Assembly (NCBI GenBank): GCA_041664925.1
Contig: JBAYJV010000001.1
Coordinates: 293,262-357,261, forward strand
Length of the DNA stretch: 64,000 bases
Direction of reading: 5' to 3'
DNA from: Minisyncoccota bacterium
GTDB lineage: Bacteria > Patescibacteriota > Minisyncoccia > JBAYJV01
Shown here: piece after piece, positions 41,705 to 51,084 of the stretch
How the letters are laid out: each line of letters starts with the position of its first letter
Position numbering within the stretch: the stretch's first letter is position 1
Notes under the pieces: model-generated
What the model saw: only the letters and a program-made list of their open reading frames with translations
Database searches by the model: none
What the model was told of the DNA's origin: nothing
Position numbers and translations under genes: made by a program

Positions 41705-41904
41705 AAAATAAGGGATATAATGAATAAATGAGACACAAGAAATAAGCAGGATGGATAAATTTTTTTCTTTTATCCTCTTAACCCCTTTATATCCTGTATT
41801 TCTTATTGTATAACAAATAAAAAATAAGGCAACAAAACAATTTTAAAAACAAAAGTCAACTTTTCAGGTGAAAAATTGACTTAGAATAATAAAAACCTAA
41901 AAAC

Positions 41905-43467
41905 CTAATCCAAGTCACACAACATATAGGCTATTGCCTTTGCTGCCAAGTCCATCGCTTCTTCGTCAAAGTTTGCTTCTGGAGTATGTAATTTGTAACC
42001 GCTGTCACCCTTTTTTCTTGCTCCCAAAGTTAATCTTGTTGATGGAATTTCTTTGCTAAAATAATTAGCATCATCTGGAACAAGCACAGGTTCAGTCTGA
42101 TAGGTGATGTTTTTATCGAATTTATCAATGGATGACTTCAGGACATTAGTTAGTCGGGGATCTCCTCTGAATGATGATATGCCCATTTTGTGGTGAAATT
42201 CGTATTGTAGTCCCGGATAATCTTTTGCAACTTCAGAAACTTTTCTTATTAGTGCTTCTTTAATGATTTTTCGCAAAGTTTTTCCTTTAACATCCGGTTC
42301 AAGAGACCACACCTTGCCAAAATTAACCGGGTTGGGCTTTGTATCTGACTTGGTCGGTTTTTCTCTTTTCCAGAAAGGAATTTTTTCTGCCGACACTGTC
42401 TCGCCCGTCCAATCATCACCAAAAAGATGTCCACTAATTTTTAATCCTTGAACATTTTGGGGGCGGTGTTGTTCGTCTTGTTCTTCTAAACGGAGAAGTT
42501 CTAAGATTCTCCCAACCTGTTCATTTATATAAGCATTTTTATCTTTAATTGACCAATCCTGTCCTTCTTTTGACGATATAGTTTCGCTAATTTCACCATA
42601 AATTTTATCAACTGCAATCAATATTTTTTTGATCTCTTGGTCAACTTTTTCAAAAAACATTTTTTGGACAGCAGGATCAGTATCTGGATCGGTAATTTCA
42701 ACAGCCCACCTATCTGAAGCGGCTAACACAGGCCTTCCTTTTTCAAATTCTCCTTCGGCTAAAACAGTTCCTGTTTCAGAAAAATCATTATAATGCCAAC
42801 TAACGAGACCATCTGCGCTAAGCATGTTTCTTATTTCTTCAGGGAGTTCTTTATTTCTGTTAGCTTCGTGAATAATTTTCGCCGCGCCTGTTTCTACGGC
42901 AGTTGATGATTCCTCGTTACCTCTAGCAACGCAGATAACATCGAAACCAAGGCCGACTTCATCATTAATTTTTGTTAAATACCTTGTTATACCTTCTCCG
43001 GTTGCTGAATTTAAGTCATGACCACAACCATGAAATGCGTCAGTGTTTTCAGATGAATATGGTAGACCAGTTTTTTCTTGCATCGGAAGAGCGTCCATGT
43101 CCCATGTTAGAACATATTTTTTTCTAGGTTGTCCTTCTGTTGATTTTTTGCCGCGCAAAATACCAACAACGCCAGCAATGCCTTTCTTTTTTTCATCTTC
43201 GCTGATTTTATAATCTGTTTCAAGAATCCAAGCTTCTAAGCCCAAGTTTTTTAGATTTTCAAGAGTTGTTTCGGCTGTCCTTTTAATCTCAAAACCGGTT
43301 TCTGGATATTGATGAATATCTCGTCTTCTTTCAACCATTTTCTGATAAGTTTCGGGCGCTTCGCTTTCTATTAAACTAGCAATTTTTTCTAACTCTGCCT
43401 GTCTTTCCGGAGTTAATTCTTTTTCTGTTTTTTCAGAAGGACTAAATTGTTCATTTTTGATACCCAT
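41905..43467 (-). CDS. M20-family amidohydrolase/peptidase-like protein
   Basis: HGCGHD motif (M20D HACGHD-like), 520 aa. Confidence 0.45.
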   Translation of the reverse strand: MGIKNEQFSPSEKTEKELTPERQAELEKIASLIESEAPETYQKMVERRRDIHQYPETGFEIKRTAETTLENLKNLGLEAWILETDYKISEDEKKKGIAGVVGILRGKKSTEGQPRKKYVLTWDMDALPMQEKTGLPYSSENTDAFHGCGHDLNSATGEGITRYLTKINDEVGLGFDVICVARGNEESSTAVETGAAKIIHEANRNKELPEEIRNMLSADGLVSWHYNDFSETGTVLAEGEFEKGRPVLAASDRWAVEITDPDTDPAVQKMFFEKVDQEIKKILIAVDKIYGEISETISSKEGQDWSIKDKNAYINEQVGRILELLRLEEQDEQHRPQNVQGLKISGHLFGDDWTGETVSAEKIPFWKREKPTKSDTKPNPVNFGKVWSLEPDVKGKTLRKIIKEALIRKVSEVAKDYPGLQYEFHHKMGISSFRGDPRLTNVLKSSIDKFDKNITYQTEPVLVPDDANYFSKEIPSTRLTLGARKKGDSGYKLHTPEANFDEEAMDLAAKAIAYMLCDLD

Positions 43468-43475
43468 AAATTTAA

Positions 43476-44420
43476 TTAATCAACTTTTACATTTAAAAGG
43501 TAAGTATAGAGGCCCATTGATGCGTAGACCCATTCTCTTAAAAAGTCTTTTACAATAACCCGAGAATCTTTATCGACTTCTTTTTCAACGGTTAGGCGAC
43601 CATCTGTCAGAATTCTTGGAGTTACATATTGAATAAAAGCATCTGGTTTCACGAGTTCTAGATCTTTTTCCGTAAAGATTTTAACCAATTTGTTGTATTT
43701 TTCCACTAATCCTGGATCTTCTCCTGGTTGGGGTAATCCTTCCATGATGATTAAAGAGTCTACTTTGGATATAAAATCTTCAAGCTTTCCTCTGATTAAT
43801 TGGCCGCCGGTTTTTTTAACAAAATCTTTAATATGAGGAGGCGTTTCGAACTCGTCAATCACAGGATCTTCATACATCGTTACGCCCATAATGCTTAACA
43901 TTTTAATCATTGCCTTAATGGGGCGCGAAGACTTAGTCATGCCGTAAAATCCTACAGTTGATTTTTTGAAATCAAAATTTCTACGAGAAAGAGAATAAAT
44001 CATAGTTAAAGAACCGTTTGTGTGTTCATCGCTACCGCACATAGCATTCACTAAAGGAATAGGGAAATCAGCAGAAAAGTCGTCTAAATTCAAGCTTTTG
44101 TGCCTAACAGCCATAATGTCACAAGCAGGAGCATACGATCTCATAAAATCCTCTATATCTTCTTCTCCTGATGCAACATAGGTTCCAGCGGTTCCACTAA
44201 TTCCAACAAAGCCGCCGCCCAATCTGATTATCGCTGACTGTAAAATTGTTGATGTGCGTGTGCTTTCTTGAAAAAATAATGTAGCGAGAACTTTTCCCGG
44301 GCAGAGATGGGTAAAATCTTTACCTTTTTCAATACCTTCTTGAAAAATCTTAGCGCGCCTACAGACCTCTAAATAATCTTCTTTAGTAAAATCTTCCGCT
44401 TTGATTAAATGTTTGGGCAT
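43476..44420 (-). CDS. divergent aspartate/ornithine carbamoyltransferase-fold protein
   Basis: FFQESTRTS (STRTR-like), DIMAVRH, PLVNAMCGSDEHTNG (HPxQ region altered); 314 aa. Confidence 0.4.
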   Translation of the reverse strand: MPKHLIKAEDFTKEDYLEVCRRAKIFQEGIEKGKDFTHLCPGKVLATLFFQESTRTSTILQSAIIRLGGGFVGISGTAGTYVASGEEDIEDFMRSYAPACDIMAVRHKSLNLDDFSADFPIPLVNAMCGSDEHTNGSLTMIYSLSRRNFDFKKSTVGFYGMTKSSRPIKAMIKMLSIMGVTMYEDPVIDEFETPPHIKDFVKKTGGQLIRGKLEDFISKVDSLIIMEGLPQPGEDPGLVEKYNKLVKIFTEKDLELVKPDAFIQYVTPRILTDGRLTVEKEVDKDSRVIVKDFLREWVYASMGLYTYLLNVKVD

Positions 44421-44462
44421 ATTTTTTATTAAAAATTAAATTTCTAAACTTAAAATTAAGTC

Positions 44463-45401
44463 TTATAAAGTTGTAATTGGTCGAGCTTGGAGAATATAAA
44501 GCGTATTATTTTCAAGCGCCCATTCAATATCTTGCGGCTTTCCGTAATGATTTTCAATATTGATAGCGATTTTCGCCAATTCCTTGATTTTTTCATTTGA
44601 TAATTTCTGTTTATCTTTTTTATCGTCAGGTACTGCTCTTTCTTCTGTGTCAAAATCAGGTTTTCTGACAATCATTTTTGTTTGTTCAGATGTGCTGACA
44701 TCAATAAAATTGAGAGTGCTTTTTTCAATAACATAACTATCGGGCGTAATACTTCCCTGAACTAAAGCTTCTCCCAATCCCCAACAAGCCTCCGCAATCA
44801 TTTGATCTTTATCTCGAGTGACTGGATGGACCGTAAAACAAACGCCGGCAACTTCAGAATCAATCATTTTTTGGACTACTACTGCCACAGAAACCAATTT
44901 TCCTTTATAACCACGCTCGAATCTGTAACATAGTGCTCTTGGAGAAAACAGCGAAGCCCAACATTTTTTTACGCTTTCTAAAACATTATTTTTGTTTATA
45001 AAAAGATAGCTTTCAAGTTGGCCTGCCCAAGCGTCAATAGCGGAATCTTCGGCAGTAGCTGACGACCTGATGGCAACATATTCTGTGTCAAGATTATCAA
45101 AATTAATTAAAATTTCTTCTTTAATATTCTCAGGAATGCTTCCATTAGAAACGATATTATGAATTTCTTCTGAACAGGATTCTATGGCTGAAGAATCCTG
45201 AGTATCAACCTTGTCCAATAATTTATCAATTTTTGTTTTAATATCGTTATCTTTTAAAAATTTATCAAAAGCAGAAGCAAGGACAACAAAACCCGGAGGA
45301 ACAGGGATGCCCGCCTGAGTCATTTCGCCCAGAGACGCTCCTTTTCCACCGGCAATTCCTACATCATTTTTTGAAATTTCTCTAAAATTCTTGATATACA
45401 T
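44463..45401 (-). CDS. stand-alone PPDK_N / PEP-synthase N-terminal ATP-grasp nucleotide-binding domain protein
   Basis: VGIAGGKGASLGEM, GIPVPPGFVV, VAIRSSATAEDS, GVCFTVHP, DIEWA...LQARPITTL; no swivel or TIM-barrel domain. Confidence 0.8.
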   Translation of the reverse strand: MYIKNFREISKNDVGIAGGKGASLGEMTQAGIPVPPGFVVLASAFDKFLKDNDIKTKIDKLLDKVDTQDSSAIESCSEEIHNIVSNGSIPENIKEEILINFDNLDTEYVAIRSSATAEDSAIDAWAGQLESYLFINKNNVLESVKKCWASLFSPRALCYRFERGYKGKLVSVAVVVQKMIDSEVAGVCFTVHPVTRDKDQMIAEACWGLGEALVQGSITPDSYVIEKSTLNFIDVSTSEQTKMIVRKPDFDTEERAVPDDKKDKQKLSNEKIKELAKIAINIENHYGKPQDIEWALENNTLYILQARPITTL

Positions 45402-45422
45402 ATTATTTTAATTATTTTTTAA

Positions 45423-46298
45423 CTATACACTCCATCTTTTCTTTCTTTCTTCTGTCTCTTTCTCGAGTTCTTCAATTATTTTTTTAAGATCCTCTTCGTC
45501 AAATTCTCTTTCCTGATCTCTATAGCTAATTTTAACCCTTCCATTTTCAATATCAATTTTATGTCCCTCTAGATAATTTCTGGCACCTCCTATTTCATCA
45601 AGACCGGCAGCATTAATCGGCATGCCCAAAAGTTTCATTACCAAAAAATCAGTATTTGCATTATGGGATATGCCAAACAATTTTATTTCGTTATTAGGAA
45701 AATGACCCTGGTTGATTTCCATCATGCTCATGAGCCACCTTATCTGTTTAATGGTAACTTGTTCAGGGGAACCGAAGAAAGTAGTATCAAATTCGGCCAC
45801 TGGTGCCTCGGGATTTTCTTTTAGCATTTCCTGCCTAAGTTGGGCTAATTCTTCAGGAGACCAGGCGGCCCATGTTTTTACGGCAAAACCTTCGTTTCCA
45901 AATATCTGCCGACTTTTTTCAAATAATTTTGCTCCTCTTGGATCACCGGTCTTTGGTATTCCTATAAGCGAAGAATAAGATAATCCTTTAATTAAAACTT
46001 TTTCTTTCGTGCTTGAATCAATTTTTTGTATTTCTCCAATATCATGAACATCTAAAATTCTATATCCTTGACCGGCCTCATTGAACAAGCTAATTAATGT
46101 TTCTTCAAAAATATCCCTTGTTTTCTGGGTTCTTTCTATATTTGATGGCATAAAAGCAATGACTGTGCCCTCAGGATAGGTTTTTATTTCTTCAAAAAGT
46201 TCTTTGGCACGGTCTCTAATTTTTTCTCTACCATCTTCTGAAATATGGCCGGTTTCATCTTTTTCCCCATGGCGCAAAACCTCAAATGATTGTTTCAT
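45423..46298 (-). CDS. histidine phosphatase superfamily (PGAM/SixA branch) protein
   Basis: VLRHGEK (RHG), SNIERTQKT (second Arg), ISHNANTDF (second His). Confidence 0.6.
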   Translation of the reverse strand: MKQSFEVLRHGEKDETGHISEDGREKIRDRAKELFEEIKTYPEGTVIAFMPSNIERTQKTRDIFEETLISLFNEAGQGYRILDVHDIGEIQKIDSSTKEKVLIKGLSYSSLIGIPKTGDPRGAKLFEKSRQIFGNEGFAVKTWAAWSPEELAQLRQEMLKENPEAPVAEFDTTFFGSPEQVTIKQIRWLMSMMEINQGHFPNNEIKLFGISHNANTDFLVMKLLGMPINAAGLDEIGGARNYLEGHKIDIENGRVKISYRDQEREFDEEDLKKIIEELEKETEERKKRWSV

Positions 46299-46321
46299 GA
46301 TATTTGTAAAATTAATTAAAA

Positions 46322-47734
46322 TTATGTTTTCTCTAATATTTTAATCATACCCTTATTCGCATCGACTTCAACCAAATCACCATCTTTAAGTATTTGAGTT
46401 GCAATTTTTGTACCAATAATACAGGGGATTCCTAATTCTCTACTAACTATAGCTGCATGACACAATATTCCACCTTCATCTGTGATAATGGCACCGGATC
46501 GCTTAATCACTCCTATAAGATTAGGCGTTGTCATGGTTGTAACCAAAATTTCTCCATTCTGTAATTCTTTAGCCATTTCTGTGCTTAGGATTATTCTGAC
46601 TCGTCCTTTGTATGTGCCAGAATTAGCTACTGTTCCCTTGATTTCTTCAAAATAGGTTTTTTCTTCTTCAAACGGAAGTTCACTATACGAAACAATTCCA
46701 CCTATAAGGATATTTGTGAAGTATTGTTTTCGTTTTATTATATCAATTTCAGTTTTGTTTTTAAAAAGATTATCGATTTCTAATACATTATACCAAACGA
46801 TATCCTCAAATTTAATATTGAATTTATTGGCAATTGCCCTAAGTAACGATCTAATGCGGTATTGTCCTAGTGTAAGCACTGTAATTCTGTTCATTCTGAA
46901 AATCATATAATCTTGGAGTAATTCGGATATCTCTATAATGTCTTTTGGCAGGGAACTTATAGATTCTATGTACTTGGCTTTTTTCTCTTCTTGATTTGCC
47001 GTTAAATTATTTAGTTCTTCGGCAGGATTTTTAATATTTTCTATTGTTTTTAAGAAATAATCATCGTCATATGGTTCGCTCAATAGGTGAGTGGTAAGAC
47101 CCATATATCCAAAATTCGCACTATGTTGTTTTATTTGCTTATCAATATTTACTCCTGATCGTTTAAGGATAGCTATCTCTAGTAAATCTTTTTGTTCTTG
47201 AAAAAAATCACTATTTTCCTGAACAGTAGTTAGAACTCTAAAAATTTTATCTTGTTTTATTTGACTAGCGTCTTTTAAATAAATATTTATTTTATTCTTA
47301 AGCCCTTCCGTTAATATTTGTTCTGGAGCGAAAACGGTATGCATAAAAGGAGAGAAGGAATAAAAATCTTTCTTAAAAAGATCCCAATATTTCAATAACT
47401 TACTACTACTCACACTCATATTTGATTTACTGATGACCTCCGTAGTATTGAGAATCTTTTTTAACCTTTTCTTACCTTCCAGCAAATGTTCTTTCATAAA
47501 TTCTAAGGGGTTTTTGTTTGCCAAAAAAGCCTCTTTGAGATTTCGCTTGCTCTCTAAGTTCTGAAGAATAGAACAAAGCTTCTTTTTGTCTTCTACTCTA
47601 GACACAATATCAAAATTAACACCAACTAATTTTGGTATTTCTTTACTCATTCCTTGGCTAATTATGTCTAAAGTTAGGCCTGTTAGAGGCCTAGAAACTA
47701 CCTTAAACCACTTAGAATCATCGTATTTTTCCAT
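46322..47734 (-). CDS. PEP-utilizing-enzyme mobile (phosphohistidine swivel) domain protein, paralog A (likely start MEKYDD at 47734; track ORF extends to 47827)
   Basis: C-terminal GGILCHAAIVSRELGIPCIIGT...DGDLVEVDA; divergent ~370-aa N-terminal region. Confidence 0.65.
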   Translation of the reverse strand: MEKYDDSKWFKVVSRPLTGLTLDIISQGMSKEIPKLVGVNFDIVSRVEDKKKLCSILQNLESKRNLKEAFLANKNPLEFMKEHLLEGKKRLKKILNTTEVISKSNMSVSSSKLLKYWDLFKKDFYSFSPFMHTVFAPEQILTEGLKNKINIYLKDASQIKQDKIFRVLTTVQENSDFFQEQKDLLEIAILKRSGVNIDKQIKQHSANFGYMGLTTHLLSEPYDDDYFLKTIENIKNPAEELNNLTANQEEKKAKYIESISSLPKDIIEISELLQDYMIFRMNRITVLTLGQYRIRSLLRAIANKFNIKFEDIVWYNVLEIDNLFKNKTEIDIIKRKQYFTNILIGGIVSYSELPFEEEKTYFEEIKGTVANSGTYKGRVRIILSTEMAKELQNGEILVTTMTTPNLIGVIKRSGAIITDEGGILCHAAIVSRELGIPCIIGTKIATQILKDGDLVEVDANKGMIKILEKT

Positions 47735-49157
47735 ATTTTCTATGAATAATTTTAATTTTACCCTTATTTGCATCGACTTCAACCAAATCACCATCTTTAA
47801 GTATTTGAGTTGCAATTTTTGTACCAATAATACAGGGAATATTAAACTCTCTGCTGATTATAGCTGCATGACACAATATTCCACCTTCATCTGTGATAAT
47901 GGCACCAGCCTTTTTAACAGCGCCAATTAAGTTAGCCGTAGTCATTGATGCAACCAAAACCTCTCCTTTTTTGAATGATTTAATCTTATCAAGACCTGTT
48001 ATTATTTTTACGTAACCAGTGTATTTTCCTGTCTTTGCTATTGATCCTGAAAATTCATTTCCGGAGACATTATCAGAAGTTTTTTCAACTTCTTCATAAT
48101 AGATTTTCCCATTTATTAAACTGGATACGAAAGATTTTTTTCTGGCTTCAACATTAGTCTTTTTAGGACGAATAAAAAGATTATCTATTTCTGGTACTGT
48201 GTACCAAATAATATCTTCAAATTTGATATCAAATCTTTTACCTATCTCTCTGGTAAGTTTTTTAACATAGTGTAATCCGACATTCATTCCTTCAGCTCTT
48301 TCCGTTCTAAAGATTGTATATTCCTGAAGAAGCTCAGCGAGTTTTACAATATCTTTTGGTATAGATTTTGCGAAACTATTGTATCCAGAAAGTATTTCTT
48401 TTTTATTTTTTTCTAATTTGATTAGTAAGTCTTTTGGATTTTTTATCTCATTTATGATTTCAAGAAAATGTTTTCTATCATACGGTTCGCTTGAAAGATG
48501 AGCGGTTATCCCCATATTTCCGAATTTTTTAATATGATTCTTTAATCTGTTCTCTATGTTTTTATTTTTTCTTATAAGAATACCTATTTCCAAAAGATCT
48601 TTCTGTTCTAGGTAGAAAATACTATCTTTTTTAATTGTTGTTAACAGCCTAAAGTAGTTTTCTTTATCTTTTGGAGAACTTTTCTTAAAATAAGCATCAA
48701 TCTTACTTTTCAGTCTGTTTGTAAGTATTTCTTCTGGAATAAAAGGGATATGAATAAAAGGACAGAAAGCGCAATAAGTTTTTTTAAACAGAATCCAATA
48801 ATTTTCTAGTTTTTCAATACTAACGTTCAGATTGTAACTATAAATTTTTTTTCCTACCCGTAGAGTTTTTTTTGTTCTTTTTCTTCCGATTTTAAGATGT
48901 TCTCTAAAAAAACTATAACCATTTTCGTGATTTTCAAAGATTTTTACCAATCTTTCTCTGCTTTCTTTCCCTTGATAGAGGGATAGGTCATTATCGTTTA
49001 TTGATTTTTCACATTTTAAATCTAATGTTGTGCCAGTAAGTCTTGGCATCTCTTCGTTTATGCCTTGAGCAACCAAACTAAAAGTTAAAATCGTGGCTGG
49101 TCGCGCAACCACCTTAATCCATTCCATATTTTCTGTAGGATTAATTTTCTTTTTCAC
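47718..49157 (-). CDS. PEP-utilizing-enzyme mobile domain protein, paralog B
   Basis: C-terminal GGILCHAAIISREFNIPCIIGT...DGDLVEVDA; 3' 150 nt about 92% identical to paralog A. Confidence 0.65.
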   Translation of the reverse strand: MKKKINPTENMEWIKVVARPATILTFSLVAQGINEEMPRLTGTTLDLKCEKSINDNDLSLYQGKESRERLVKIFENHENGYSFFREHLKIGRKRTKKTLRVGKKIYSYNLNVSIEKLENYWILFKKTYCAFCPFIHIPFIPEEILTNRLKSKIDAYFKKSSPKDKENYFRLLTTIKKDSIFYLEQKDLLEIGILIRKNKNIENRLKNHIKKFGNMGITAHLSSEPYDRKHFLEIINEIKNPKDLLIKLEKNKKEILSGYNSFAKSIPKDIVKLAELLQEYTIFRTERAEGMNVGLHYVKKLTREIGKRFDIKFEDIIWYTVPEIDNLFIRPKKTNVEARKKSFVSSLINGKIYYEEVEKTSDNVSGNEFSGSIAKTGKYTGYVKIITGLDKIKSFKKGEVLVASMTTANLIGAVKKAGAIITDEGGILCHAAIISREFNIPCIIGTKIATQILKDGDLVEVDANKGKIKIIHRKYGKIR

Positions 49158-50682
49158 TTTTTAATATTTTTACAACACCTCTATCTGCATCAACTTCAAC
49201 AAGATCGCCATCTTTAATGACTTTTGTAGCGTTTTTTGTGCCAATAATGCAGGGTTTTTTGAGCTCTCTGGCAATAATAGCAGCATGGCAAGTCAATCCT
49301 CCTTCATCAGTTACAATTGCTCCGGCCAATCGCATTACAGGCACGAAATCAACTGTAGTTGATTGAGCTATAAGAATTTCTCCTTTTTCCATTTTATTCA
49401 TTTCAGCGGTTGATAAAATTAACCTAGCAATGCCTCGAATTTTTCCTTTAGCGCCGATCTGGCCCGTAATTGTATCTATTTTTTCTGTTTCTTTTTTAAA
49501 TTGATCGAAATTGCTTTTTACATAATCTATTTCTTCTTGAACAAGCTCCCTGATACCATATTCAACGGAAAGGATTAAATTATATCCATTTTTTCTTTGC
49601 TGGTATTTTGTTTTTAACCCTTCTAATGATACTTTGCCCAAAATGCCATCTTTTATTTCTTCTGGCGAAAGACAATAAACCTGTTGCCAATTTTCCAAAT
49701 CAAGAATTTTTGCGATTGTATCAAAAAATGGTCTTACCAAGAAACCAACGTGAGAAAAAATACTCTTTCGATATTCAGCCAAAACAGTCCCCAGGCGCAT
49801 TGCTAAAATTATATTTTTTAATTTTTCAGACATTGGTAAATCACCAAATAATTTATCGCGTTGCGATAATATTTCTTTTCTGTGTGTTTTTTTAGCAGTG
49901 ATTTGTTCTTGGCAATCTCCATTATTGATGTATTTTTTAATGTCTTCGATAAATTTTGGTTCAGGAATAGGTTCGTCGATAAAATTTACCGTTATCCACG
50001 CTGAATCATTCATTAATTGATTGAGTTTTTCTTTAAAAGGAGTACCAGATAAGATGCTATTAAAATTGTTTCTGGTTTTTTTCATTTCTTCTTGTATCCA
50101 AGAAGATAATTCAAGTACGGCAATTTCTTGTTTAAAAGCTGGGGTTTCTTCATCCGGCGTAACCAATATATTAATATTTGCATCAATTTCACTAGGATCA
50201 ATATTTTTTAGTTCTTCTTTGGCAATAATAGGAGCTAACCTAGACAAATCCCAATTTAGCATTGATGTGATCATTAACCCCAAGGACAGAGCAATGTGCG
50301 ATTCGCAATATTGATCTAATTTTTTGATTAAATCATTTTTATCAGAAATCTCTTTGATTTTATTTAATTCATAAGCAATCTTAAGGAATTGCTCGCCTCG
50401 ATCTAAGAATTTTTGCTTGAGATTTTTACCTAAAAAACCATAAGGATCTTTAATAGATTCTGTTATTAAAAAATCAAGAACCTTTTCGTCGGAAATTTTA
50501 GTATCAAAAATAGCGCAACGGGTTCCTTCAGAAATCCATAATTCTTCCAGTGGCGGGACCTTCCAACTGTCAGCTCCATACGTAAAACCAACAGCATCTA
50601 AGTAACGCTGAAAAAATGCAAAATTGCGCGTAAGCTGATAATTCCAATTTTCTGGACTAAAAATTTTTAAATCTATAGGCAT
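49141..50682 (-). CDS. PEP-utilizing-enzyme mobile domain protein, paralog C
   Basis: C-terminal GGLTCHAAIIARELKKPCIIGT...DGDLVEVDA. Confidence 0.65.
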   Translation of the reverse strand: MPIDLKIFSPENWNYQLTRNFAFFQRYLDAVGFTYGADSWKVPPLEELWISEGTRCAIFDTKISDEKVLDFLITESIKDPYGFLGKNLKQKFLDRGEQFLKIAYELNKIKEISDKNDLIKKLDQYCESHIALSLGLMITSMLNWDLSRLAPIIAKEELKNIDPSEIDANINILVTPDEETPAFKQEIAVLELSSWIQEEMKKTRNNFNSILSGTPFKEKLNQLMNDSAWITVNFIDEPIPEPKFIEDIKKYINNGDCQEQITAKKTHRKEILSQRDKLFGDLPMSEKLKNIILAMRLGTVLAEYRKSIFSHVGFLVRPFFDTIAKILDLENWQQVYCLSPEEIKDGILGKVSLEGLKTKYQQRKNGYNLILSVEYGIRELVQEEIDYVKSNFDQFKKETEKIDTITGQIGAKGKIRGIARLILSTAEMNKMEKGEILIAQSTTVDFVPVMRLAGAIVTDEGGLTCHAAIIARELKKPCIIGTKNATKVIKDGDLVEVDADRGVVKILKSEKEN

Positions 50683-50703: not shown

Positions 50704-51084
50704 TTAAGTGAAAAATTGACTCAAAACCTTGTCTTTTTTAAATTTCTTTATATTGCGATTAACTTGGCGATAAAAAGCGGGGTAGTGAGAACGATTAATA
50801 ATCTTTCTTCGCCACAATTGGCGATAGGGTGGTTTCTGACAATGAGCTAATTCGTGGGCTAGTGTTCGCAGAATAACGCTGGGTTTTTTGGGCCTTCTTT
50901 CTCGAGGTGAATAAAGATCTAGAACTACTTTTTTTGTTTTGAGATTAATATAGGCAATGCGGAAAGATCTTTTTGGATCTTTAATAGGTGATTTTCTTTT
51001 CATTGCCTGAAAATGAAAACCGGCAAGACTTAGAGTCTCACAGGTACGTTCAAAAAGAAACTGTCCCAGCTCTTCTTGCGTCAT
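50704..51084 (-). CDS. small HExxH protein (SprT/DUF45-like putative zinc metallopeptidase)
   Basis: LAHELAHC motif, 126 aa, basic. Confidence 0.4.

Follow-up and report, generated by a model that had tools for sequence, protein, structure and literature searches.

Seven co-directional genes on the minus strand of the 64-kb window (the whole stretch of DNA that we analysed) probably encode an ATP-dependent, two-component dikinase akin to RPH, HpeHI and PpsAB, with a one-to-many layout in which a single ATP-grasp subunit (GRASP) would serve three substrate/phospho-histidine subunits (SwA, SwB and SwC) in trans. The one-to-many design is widespread and conserved in ultra-small bacteria and archaea and is apparently undescribed. 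The split of such enzymes into separate genes is already known; the layout looks new.

The block (41905–50682) comprises GRASP, SwA, SwB, SwC, a histidine phosphatase-like gene (HP), an OTC-like gene and an M20 amidohydrolase gene. All seven open reading frames (ORFs) lie where the initial annotation had placed them, and the tight spacing that it described was borne out: neighbouring ORFs are 8–42 nt apart or overlap by 17 nt. A terminator-like hairpin on the minus strand (41853..41882; a 13-bp stem and then a T-run, a consensus match only) lies just 3′ of the M20 stop codon and probably marks where the transcription unit ends. As evidence, operon membership in the window is weak: on the same strand, the run of genes extends past the block into the housekeeping genes MetK and GlyRS, and promoter matches in the window are at chance level only.

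GRASP (312 amino acids; 44463..45401, minus strand) is a stand-alone PPDK_N ATP-grasp nucleotide-binding subunit. As initially annotated, it stops at the domain boundary: PPDK_N is its only Pfam match (E = 2e-101; profile positions 3–311 of 328) and the protein ends in ...QARPITTL. The motifs GGKGASLGEM, RSSATAED, DIEWA and QARPITTL are all present. It is the only ATP-grasp gene found in a scan of the 64-kb window, although a second may lie elsewhere in the genome. It is 63% identical to the stand-alone ATP-grasp protein of a related locus (L003), and matches PEP synthase (3e-72), the RPH ATP-grasp (2e-60) and HpeI (9GOJ; 4e-57) in the PDB, in each case over its full length.

The three modules—SwA (513 amino acids; 49141..50682), SwB (479 amino acids from a GTG start; 47718..49157) and SwC (470 amino acids; 46322..47734), all on the minus strand—have the C-terminal PEP-utilizers swivel as their sole Pfam domain (E = 1e-23 to 2e-25 for the three domains, with individual values of 1.2e-22 for SwB and 1.5e-23 for SwC), as had been proposed. 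The SwB start relies on the GTG codon, and an alternative ATG lies ten codons downstream. SwA consists of a rifampin-binding-like substrate domain (residues 1–400; 49483–50682) and the phospho-histidine swivel (residues 401–513); SwB and SwC share this architecture. The carrier histidines are H466 in SwA (49285–49287, within GGLTCH), H430 in SwB (47868–47870, within GGILCH) and H426 in SwC (46457–46459). The Cys-His dyad was initially considered a departure from the canonical sequence, but is ordinary: the PEP-synthase consensus, GGxT[S/C]HAA, allows Cys (PMC12167813), and both TSH and TCH are seen within the family. An identity of about 30% between the N-terminal regions of all three paralogs had also been noted; this holds for SwA compared with SwB or SwC, over the C-terminal two-thirds only, but not for SwB and SwC, which share 47.5% identity from end to end. 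Judged from its sequence, SwC is a recent paralog of SwB.

The SwB/SwC and SwA types are full-length homologous (hhalign probability 100, E = 1e-81, 473 columns). Beyond the swivel, RPH is the only solved structure that matches; the family profile aligns to RPH residues 446–866 (E = 3e-32), covering the catalytic R666-E667..K670 segment, on which the conserved family motif N-E-x-R-K falls. The corresponding motif in SwA, A-E-Y-R-K (residues 302–306; 49765–49779), aligns to this segment; those in SwB and SwC are F-R-T-E-R-A (residues 283–288; 48294–48311) and F-R-M-N-R-I (residues 279–284; 46883–46900). SwC has no acidic residue at the position equivalent to E667, and that of SwB is one position off.

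HP (291 amino acids; 45423..46298, minus strand) had been called a histidine phosphatase. Although HP itself has no Pfam match, 9 of the 44 members of its family match His_Phos_1 (best E = 5.6e-10), alignment of the family profile with PGM-like phosphatases pairs up the RHG and S..R..T motifs, and R9, H10, R56 and H212 vary little or not at all. These features support placing HP as a divergent member of the branch-1 histidine phosphatases. Its RHG motif occupies residues 9–11 (within 46260–46274), and S52..R56..T60 and H212 (within 45660–45674) are also present. HP's closest structural matches are small-molecule phosphatases that carry cap insertions; the model of HP is modest in quality (pLDDT 68). 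The HP family is small and its genes adjoin swivel-module genes in four loci; more broadly, arrays repeatedly contain or adjoin phosphatases of several superfamilies (His_Phos_1, HD and HAD phosphohydrolases). With no intermediate step between them, kinases and phosphatases encoded together would run a futile cycle, which counts against the explanation that we favour.

The OTC-like protein (314 amino acids; 43476..44420, minus strand) has the ATCase fold, matches only OTCace_N in Pfam (E = 3e-22; PF00185 is not matched) and belongs to a family found in Patescibacteria only. Its description as a degenerate carbamoyltransferase stands: the phosphate-binding residues STRT 53–56, R106, H133 and R166 are retained, whereas EHTNG takes the place of HPxQ, and both HPLPR and the R-x-Q segment that binds aspartate are lost. 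In 8 of 8 loci, the OTC-like gene adjoins an amidohydrolase gene, inside or beside a swivel array. Here the neighbour is M20 (520 amino acids; 41905..43467, minus strand), of the aminoacylase/carboxypeptidase type; a Pfam Peptidase_M20 match (E = 3e-17) agrees with the initial family assignment, the metal motif GCGHD spans residues 147–151, and NCBIfam matches (TIGR01891/CpsA) are partial. An Amidohydro_3 enzyme fills this position in six related loci (L031 and L086–L090), and M20 genes flank the OTC-like gene in L018.

A survey of gene neighbourhoods, suggested in the initial annotation, recovered the same design of one ATP-grasp and many modules across Patescibacteria and DPANN. Tandem modules number from 4 to at least 12 in related loci, and never more than one ATP-grasp gene is seen with them. 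This gene stands alone in some arrays (L003, with five modules, and L023, L089 and L090), and Rosetta-stone fusions join it to modules in others: a 3768-amino-acid ORF (L007) consists of one ATP-grasp and eight swivel modules, each with an intact GG..[SC]H, and further fusions combine one ATP-grasp with four (L017) or two (L016) modules, or with three modules followed by four separate module genes (L072). Such fusion proteins strongly support the putative sharing of one ATP-grasp in trans. Within 10-kb flanks, no ATP-grasp gene was found for arrays L006, L008, L018, L020 and L027 or for the single-module locus L001; such loci, like the missing acidic residue of SwC and the displaced one of SwB, count against the favoured explanation. 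Among 116 modules, median identity between swivel domains is 51%, whereas similarity between substrate domains is detectable in 15.5% of pairs, with a median identity of 23%. The nearest substrate domain sits in another genome for 108 of the 116. By these sequence comparisons, the substrate-module types are mostly ancient and common to different genomes and domains, rather than recently diversified.

We propose that GRASP binds ATP and would pass the β-phosphate to the swivel histidines of all three modules, SwA (H466), SwB (H430) and SwC (H426), with release of AMP and Pi. The charged swivel would swing back onto its own rifampin-binding-like domain, where the Arg/Glu/Lys motif homologous to R666-E667..K670 of RPH—residues that the second phosphotransfer of that enzyme was found to require (PMC4844700)—would help to move the phosphate to a hydroxyl-type acceptor of a bound small molecule. 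The substrate domains are highly diverged and the swivels conserved; each module is therefore expected to have its own substrate, and each would phosphorylate a different small molecule. The OTC-like protein, in which only the phosphate-binding site is kept, probably binds or converts one phosphorylated product, and the adjacent amidohydrolase may work on the same branch. HP would dephosphorylate a product or, possibly, the phospho-histidine carrier.

The same components might instead form a reverse or exchange network, in which the modules take phosphate from phosphorylated (for example, host-scavenged) metabolites and pass it, ATP-free, to other acceptors, or to the ATP-grasp, where AMP and Pi would be turned back into ATP. 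Both PEP synthase and PPDK can run in reverse, energy metabolism is minimal in the CPR/DPANN hosts, an ATP-grasp gene is lacking within 10 kb of some modules, and the OTC-like protein retains the type of site that holds the phosphate of carbamoyl phosphate. Moreover, HpeH alone transfers phosphate from 4-phosphoacetophenone to acetovanillone (PMC12167813). We nevertheless regard such a network as unlikely: AMP and Pi cannot be converted to ATP at the expense of ordinary phosphate esters, co-encoded phosphatases would waste phospho-donors, and the ATP-grasp is integral to the system because it is fused to 2–8 modules in several lineages. Resistance or detoxification, with each RPH-like module inactivating a different antibiotic or toxin by phosphorylation, would fit the unique structural match to RPH; antibiotics have been proposed as targets of RPH-family members (PMC12167813, PMC4844700), rph-like matches are listed in a CPR resistome survey (PMC8651080), and an arms race would fit hyper-divergent substrate domains. 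We find this improbable, given that the module types are ancient and shared (108/116), that identity to RPH is only 16–17% and that PADLOC returned no matches; phosphatases would reverse an inactivation, and arrays located among housekeeping genes and tied to an ATCase-fold protein, amidohydrolases and phosphatases look like metabolism.

It is very unlikely that the block is a phospho-relay acting on proteins or polymers, either regulatory or directed at a glycan, with HP as a SixA-type phospho-histidine phosphatase. PTS swivel domains do act on protein partners, and glucan water dikinase applies the same chemistry to starch; however, the substrate domain here is RPH-like and retains the RPH phosphate-transfer motif, a search of the array loci for carbohydrate-binding modules and HPr-like partners found none, and HP most resembles small-molecule phosphatases. 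Decay of a PEP synthase or PPDK into pseudogene pieces without joint function is effectively refuted. GRASP is closest to PEP-synthase N termini and annotation pipelines label these proteins ‘PEP-utilizing enzyme’, but no ORF is interrupted, catalytic motifs are conserved, and the N-terminal regions have an RPH-like fold and are neither TIM-barrel nor ATP-grasp fragments. Such fragments, or a lack of swivel matches, had been named in the initial annotation as fatal to its interpretation; neither was found. The TIM barrel that it had reported missing gave no HMM matches in the 64-kb window or in any array locus, and the arrangement is conserved in many Patescibacteria and DPANN genomes, also as long intact fusions.

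The favoured one-to-many dikinase shares parts with several known systems. PEP synthase and PPDK have homologous PPDK_N ATP-grasp and PEP-utilizers swivel domains, and both find their best sequence match in PEP synthase; unlike in these enzymes, a TIM barrel is absent from the window and array loci, the swivel is C-terminal rather than central and the substrate domain has a different fold. The OTC-like protein shares with aspartate and ornithine carbamoyltransferases the N-terminal carbamoyl-phosphate-binding domain, with STRT and equivalents of R105/H134/R167, but differs from true ATCases in that HPxQ has become EHxxG, the R229/Q231 segment is deleted and HPLPR is gone; it also has a family-specific TDGRL insertion, is no more than 31% identical to true ATCases and scores far below NCBIfam cut-offs. 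When GRASP and a module are joined, as in the fused homolog P0040 (GRASP match at residues 3–313, 50% identity; SwA match at 319–800, 32%), the three domains and their order are those of RPH-Lm (PDB 5FBS/5FBT/5FBU/5HV1), in keeping with the initial view of an RPH domain inventory split into genes. The joined proteins and RPH also agree in fold, in the carrier His and in the Glu and Lys within R666-E667..K670, whereas RPH is a single chain, SwA is only 16–17% identical to it, and the Arg of the SwA-type family is three residues from the R666 position. Nothing points to rifamycins as the substrate. The split architecture, initially thought undescribed, has published precedents in HpeHI (Rhodococcus), CreHI (Corynebacterium) and the PpsAB phenylphosphate synthase (Thauera/Aromatoleum), which are biochemically characterised two-component dikinases (PMC12167813) and include the HpeI that GRASP matches. 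As here, the ATP-grasp subunit is encoded apart from a subunit with an RPH-like substrate domain and a C-terminal His swivel; our comparison of the modules with HpeH, CreH and PpsA draws on their published descriptions. In those systems the two genes are paired 1:1, the enzymes act on phenolic substrates in aromatic catabolism, the partners are carboxylases and the H subunits are about 45% mutually identical. By contrast, the block pairs one ATP-grasp gene with three modules (4 to at least 12 in relatives, or 2–8 when fused), its hosts are Patescibacteria and DPANN, it is accompanied by an ATCase-fold protein, amidohydrolases and phosphatases, and its substrate domains are almost unalignable between module types.

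The gene arrangement proposed in the initial annotation was confirmed: seven ORFs occupy 41905–50682 in tandem on the minus strand, with intergenic gaps of 8–42 nt. In reading order, the first three encode swivel proteins (SwA, 49141–50682; SwB, 47718–49157; SwC, 46322–47734), each with a Pfam match only to the C-terminal PEP-utilizers swivel domain (E values of 1e-23 to 2e-25). They are followed by a divergent histidine phosphatase (HP, 45423–46298), a stand-alone ATP-grasp protein (GRASP, 44463–45401), an ATCase-fold protein (OTC-like, 43476–44420; OTCace_N only) and an amidohydrolase (M20, 41905–43467; Peptidase_M20). As expected from the earlier reading, PPDK_N was matched by GRASP only (E 2e-101, its single Pfam domain). 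NCBIfam agrees with Pfam, and none of the seven proteins reaches an equivalog cut-off. Both Sw–Sw junctions overlap by 17 nt (49141–49157 and 47718–47734), given a GTG start for SwB; an alternative in-frame ATG lies ten codons downstream (MEW...). The sole sizeable intergenic gap of the block, 200 nt in length, follows M20 and contains a terminator-like hairpin (41853–41882, minus strand; 13-bp stem and T-run). Upstream, the same-strand gene run continues into MetK and GlyRS, so operon structure in the window is by itself weak evidence, and a promoter scan returned matches at chance level only. Immediately upstream of SwA, an ORF of 126 aa (50704–51084, minus strand) has an HExxH motif (LAHELAHCQ) and no match in Pfam, NCBIfam or PADLOC; it may encode a small metalloprotease-like protein.

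The Sw proteins resemble rifampin phosphotransferase (RPH) in both profile and fold. With a confident AlphaFold model of SwA (pLDDT 90.9, pTM 0.87), structures of the Listeria enzyme (RPH-Lm) ranked first in Foldseek (E of about 5e-13, TM of about 0.57, ~570 columns), and the Sw family profile matches residues 446–866 of RPH-Lm (E 3e-32). Scores for the NCBIfam equivalog RIF_Ptrans_rph fall short (275 bits for GRASP and 44–69 bits for the Sw proteins, against a cut-off of 999). No hidden PEP/pyruvate TIM barrel was found: PEP-utilizers_C has no Pfam match in the block proteins, and a TIM-barrel HMM derived from ordinary PEP synthases, which matched 39 PEP-synthase loci, had 0 matches in the window or any array locus.

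In the profile alignment, the conserved N-E-x-R-K of the Sw family falls on Y665-R666-E667-Y668-P669-K670 of RPH, in which R666 and E667 are essential for the second phosphotransfer, as established by mutagenesis (PMC4844700). The Glu and Lys of SwA align with this segment and its Arg falls on P669; in both SwB and SwC an Arg occupies the R666 position, with the Glu shifted in SwB and no acidic residue equivalent to E667 in SwC. The carrier His (His825 position of RPH) is conserved, and its motif GG..CH is intact in SwA, SwB and SwC. The Cys–His dyad had been regarded as unusual, but the PEP-synthase consensus is GGxT[S/C]HAA (PMC12167813), and both TSH and TCH occur within the Sw family. SwB/SwC-type and SwA-type modules (substrate domain plus swivel) are homologous almost from end to end (hhalign probability 100, E 1e-81, 473 columns). 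The identity of about 30% previously given for the paralogs holds for SwA against SwB or SwC (29–32%, over the C-terminal two-thirds of SwA only), whereas SwB and SwC share 47.5% over their full length and are one of the few recent duplications among modules.

A fused homolog links the two kinds of subunit. In P0040 (800 aa), residues 3–313 align end to end with GRASP (50% identity) and residues 319–800 align end to end with SwA (32% identity). Full-length hits for GRASP include PEP synthase (E 3e-72), 5HV6, which is the RPH ATP-grasp domain in isolation (E 2e-60), and 9GOJ (E 4e-57); the last is HpeI, the ATP-grasp subunit of the characterized two-component dikinase HpeHI. GRASP and the Sw proteins are thus predicted to form a split RPH-type enzyme.

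Local HMM annotation of reference genomes and of gene contexts showed related tandem arrays and fusions among Patescibacteria and DPANN archaea, a widespread layout that the window exemplifies on a small scale. One locus (L003) has 5 modules and one stand-alone ATP-grasp protein of 311 aa that is 63% identical to GRASP, and another (L090) has 9 modules in tandem and one ATP-grasp gene. Further tandem arrays include 7 modules in Falkowbacteria (L008), 8 in Woesearchaeota (L020) and at least 12 in Nealsonbacteria (L006). For some arrays, including those reaching at least 12 modules, no ATP-grasp gene was found within the 10-kb flanks. [quoted passage not shown] The largest, in a Woesearchaeota MAG (L007, 629–11932, plus strand), is a 3768-aa ORF of 1+8 organization in which all eight GG..[SC]H motifs are intact. 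Ratios of ATP-grasp to modules in relatives range from 1:2 up to 1:9, with fusions of 1+2 to 1+8, and it is these 1+N fusions that argue most strongly for one ATP-grasp serving many swivel modules. In L012, a further ORF is cut short by the contig end; it exceeds 2937 aa and carries at least 8 swivel domains.

Across 116 modules, the swivel domains are ~51% identical and almost all pairs align, whereas BLASTP detects just 15.5% of the substrate-domain pairs, at ~23% identity. Such a pairing of a conserved docking and carrier part with diverged substrate parts would be expected if the modules shared one ATP-grasp but differed in substrate. For 108 of the 116 modules the nearest substrate domain comes from a different genome, which marks the arrays as assemblies of distinct module types of ancient origin. 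The arrays, the 1+N fusions and the link to OTC-like and amidohydrolase genes had no description in the literature searched, which was incomplete, so that absence is not proof; the one-to-many layout in Patescibacteria and DPANN archaea appears to be new. A hint of sugar substrates was discarded. The apparent fusions to Epimerase_2 (PF02350) or AcnX (PF01989) are matches of 40–90 aa below the Pfam cut-off that overlap the swivel fold, and the precomputed PF02350 (UDP-GlcNAc 2-epimerase) labels on the SwA homologs P0012, P0037, P0052, P0061 and P0076 are such sub-threshold local matches; the proteins are fusions of two swivel modules. Small NYN-domain and NTP_transf_2 (nucleotidyltransferase) genes, which may be toxin–antitoxin-like elements, recur in or beside arrays (L015, 8518–9024 and 10714–11259; L018, 2279–2947; L020, 2758–3327).

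The accessory genes also recur. The OTC-like family is confined to Patescibacteria (~60 clusters at 42–68% identity, PF02729 only, in a protein search), and is at most 31% identical to true ATCases; the window protein scores under all NCBIfam cut-offs, and a metagenome scan for close relatives returned no matches. Of the motif set of aspartate and ornithine carbamoyltransferases (STRT, HPxQ, HPLPR and second-substrate residues), the alignment shows that OTC-like keeps only STRT, R106, H133 and R166, which contact the phosphate group of carbamoyl phosphate. EHxxG replaces HPxQ, the R-x-Q aspartate-binding segment is deleted, HPLPR is lost and a TDGRL insertion is gained, in line with the degenerate carbamoyltransferase first described. 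An OTC-like gene lies in or beside an Sw array and directly adjoins an amidohydrolase gene in all five further members examined as well as in L018, L031 and the window; six of these neighbours are Amidohydro_3 enzymes and two are M20 enzymes. We infer that OTC-like binds a phosphorylated ligand and that it and the amidohydrolase act together in a single branch of the system. In L089 (14533–16868) and L090 (17585–20661), the OTC-like/Amidohydro_3 pair is separated from the stand-alone PPDK_N gene by genes for flavokinase, riboflavin synthase (Lum_binding) and lumazine synthase, an arrangement that could reflect a link to flavin metabolism or coincidence in related lineages.

HP has only ~65 relatives among 1.84 billion representative proteins and no Pfam match on its own, even at E ≤ 10. 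The family retains R9, H10, R56 and H212, its profile aligns to PGM-like phosphatases and 9 of its 44 members match His_Phos_1. By family alignment and fold (RHG His, two Arg, second His, PGM-like), HP is a branch-1 histidine phosphatase, which bears out its original assignment. Genes of the HP family are in or adjoin Sw loci in four cases (window, L085, L016 and L072), and other phosphohydrolases do so at further arrays (canonical His_Phos_1 in L006 and L017, HD in L006 and L016, HAD in L020 and L072); the kinase–phosphatase link is therefore a repeated theme. An isoleucyl-tRNA-synthetase-like product of 1217 aa in L087 (1–920) has a recorded internal His_Phos_1 match.

Domains, folds, motifs, fusions and conserved neighbourhoods are the observations on which we base a mechanism for the block, and we consider a one-to-many two-component dikinase probable. 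GRASP would bind ATP and phosphorylate the swivel histidines of SwA, SwB and SwC one after another, yielding AMP and Pi; each swivel would return to its own RPH-like domain and phosphorylate a distinct small-molecule acceptor. The phospho-products would be handled by OTC-like and the amidohydrolase, and HP would dephosphorylate them. In this scheme, charging in trans and the stoichiometry are inferred, as are the kind of acceptor and what each accessory enzyme does. The arrays with no ATP-grasp gene within 10 kb and the missing E667-equivalent acidic residue of SwC weigh against it, and a kinase and a phosphatase in one block make sense only with an intermediate step. More tentatively, and with less than even confidence, we suggest that Patescibacteria and DPANN archaea possess a modular 'dikinase battery' not described before, in which a single ATP-grasp charges many interchangeable phospho-histidine carrier/substrate modules (3 in the window, 8 in one polypeptide and 12 or more in some arrays) and which, with a dedicated ATCase-fold phospho-ligand protein, amidohydrolase and phosphatases, would form a main route for phosphorylating and processing scavenged metabolites in metabolically minimal symbionts.

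Other readings of the block fare less well. A battery that inactivates antibiotics or toxins would fit with the rph-like hits listed in a survey of the CPR resistome (PMC8651080), and we rate it as unlikely; reverse or exchange operation of the system is equally improbable. A phospho-relay acting on proteins or polymers seems very unlikely. Pseudogene debris is effectively refuted: by profile, fold, Pfam and the TIM-barrel HMM, the Sw N termini are RPH-like rather than TIM-barrel or ATP-grasp fragments, and each protein has its swivel, so that neither outcome named in the initial annotation as refuting a split enzyme was observed. An anti-phage defence system was rejected, with no PADLOC matches, as was a phage-borne system. 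The 80 viral loci (L091–L170) are mostly ordinary PEP synthases with a TIM barrel, many of them from MAGs of giant viruses, and arrays are absent from all 80; in nine viral loci an ATP-grasp ORF precedes a distinct swivel ORF, with no TIM barrel. It is also unsupported that the 'PEP synthase K01007' reported for Nanobdellota in a preprint represents the Sw family in general, as genuine TIM-barrel PEP synthases occur in loci of Nanoarchaeota, Micrarchaeota, Woesebacteria and Saccharimonadales.

In the current understanding of swivelling-domain dikinases, a single ATP site supplies a single substrate site. If the one-to-many dikinase is correct, the supply of many carriers by one ATP-grasp, fixed in chains as long as 3,768 residues, would represent a novel organization of phosphoryl transfer and a natural system for asking how a mobile domain selects its docking partner. 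CPR and DPANN organisms have very few recognizable metabolic enzymes, and the usual annotation of these genes as 'PEP-utilizing enzyme' or 'PEP synthase' can mislead reconstructions of their metabolism. A conserved, expanded and ancient set of predicted small-molecule kinases, together with an ATCase-fold protein, amidohydrolases and phosphatases, would point to uncharted metabolism or host dependence. In our view, the block proteins are soluble and small enough for direct testing.

The initial interpretation was largely right, but it overstated the novelty of the split and was mistaken on the Cys–His dyad. HpeHI, CreHI and phenylphosphate synthase PpsAB each pair an ATP-grasp subunit with a subunit that has an RPH-like substrate domain and swivel (Dexter et al., PMC12167813), so the split itself was already known. 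RPH is a single polypeptide (ATP-grasp, RIF-binding domain and swivel), whereas the window genes are split, although fused homologs exist; PEP synthase and PPDK have a C-terminal TIM barrel, which the window and array loci lack. Like HpeHI, CreHI and PpsAB, the window encodes a separate PPDK_N subunit (GRASP, homologous to HpeI/PpsB) and second subunits with an RPH-type substrate domain and a C-terminal swivel with a carrier His. Those systems act on phenolic substrates in an aromatic-catabolism context with a carboxylase, whereas no carboxylase genes were seen in the window or the neighbourhoods of related loci, in which the neighbours are the ATCase-fold protein, amidohydrolases, phosphatases and housekeeping genes. 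Unlike their 1:1 arrangement, the window combines one GRASP gene with three Sw genes.
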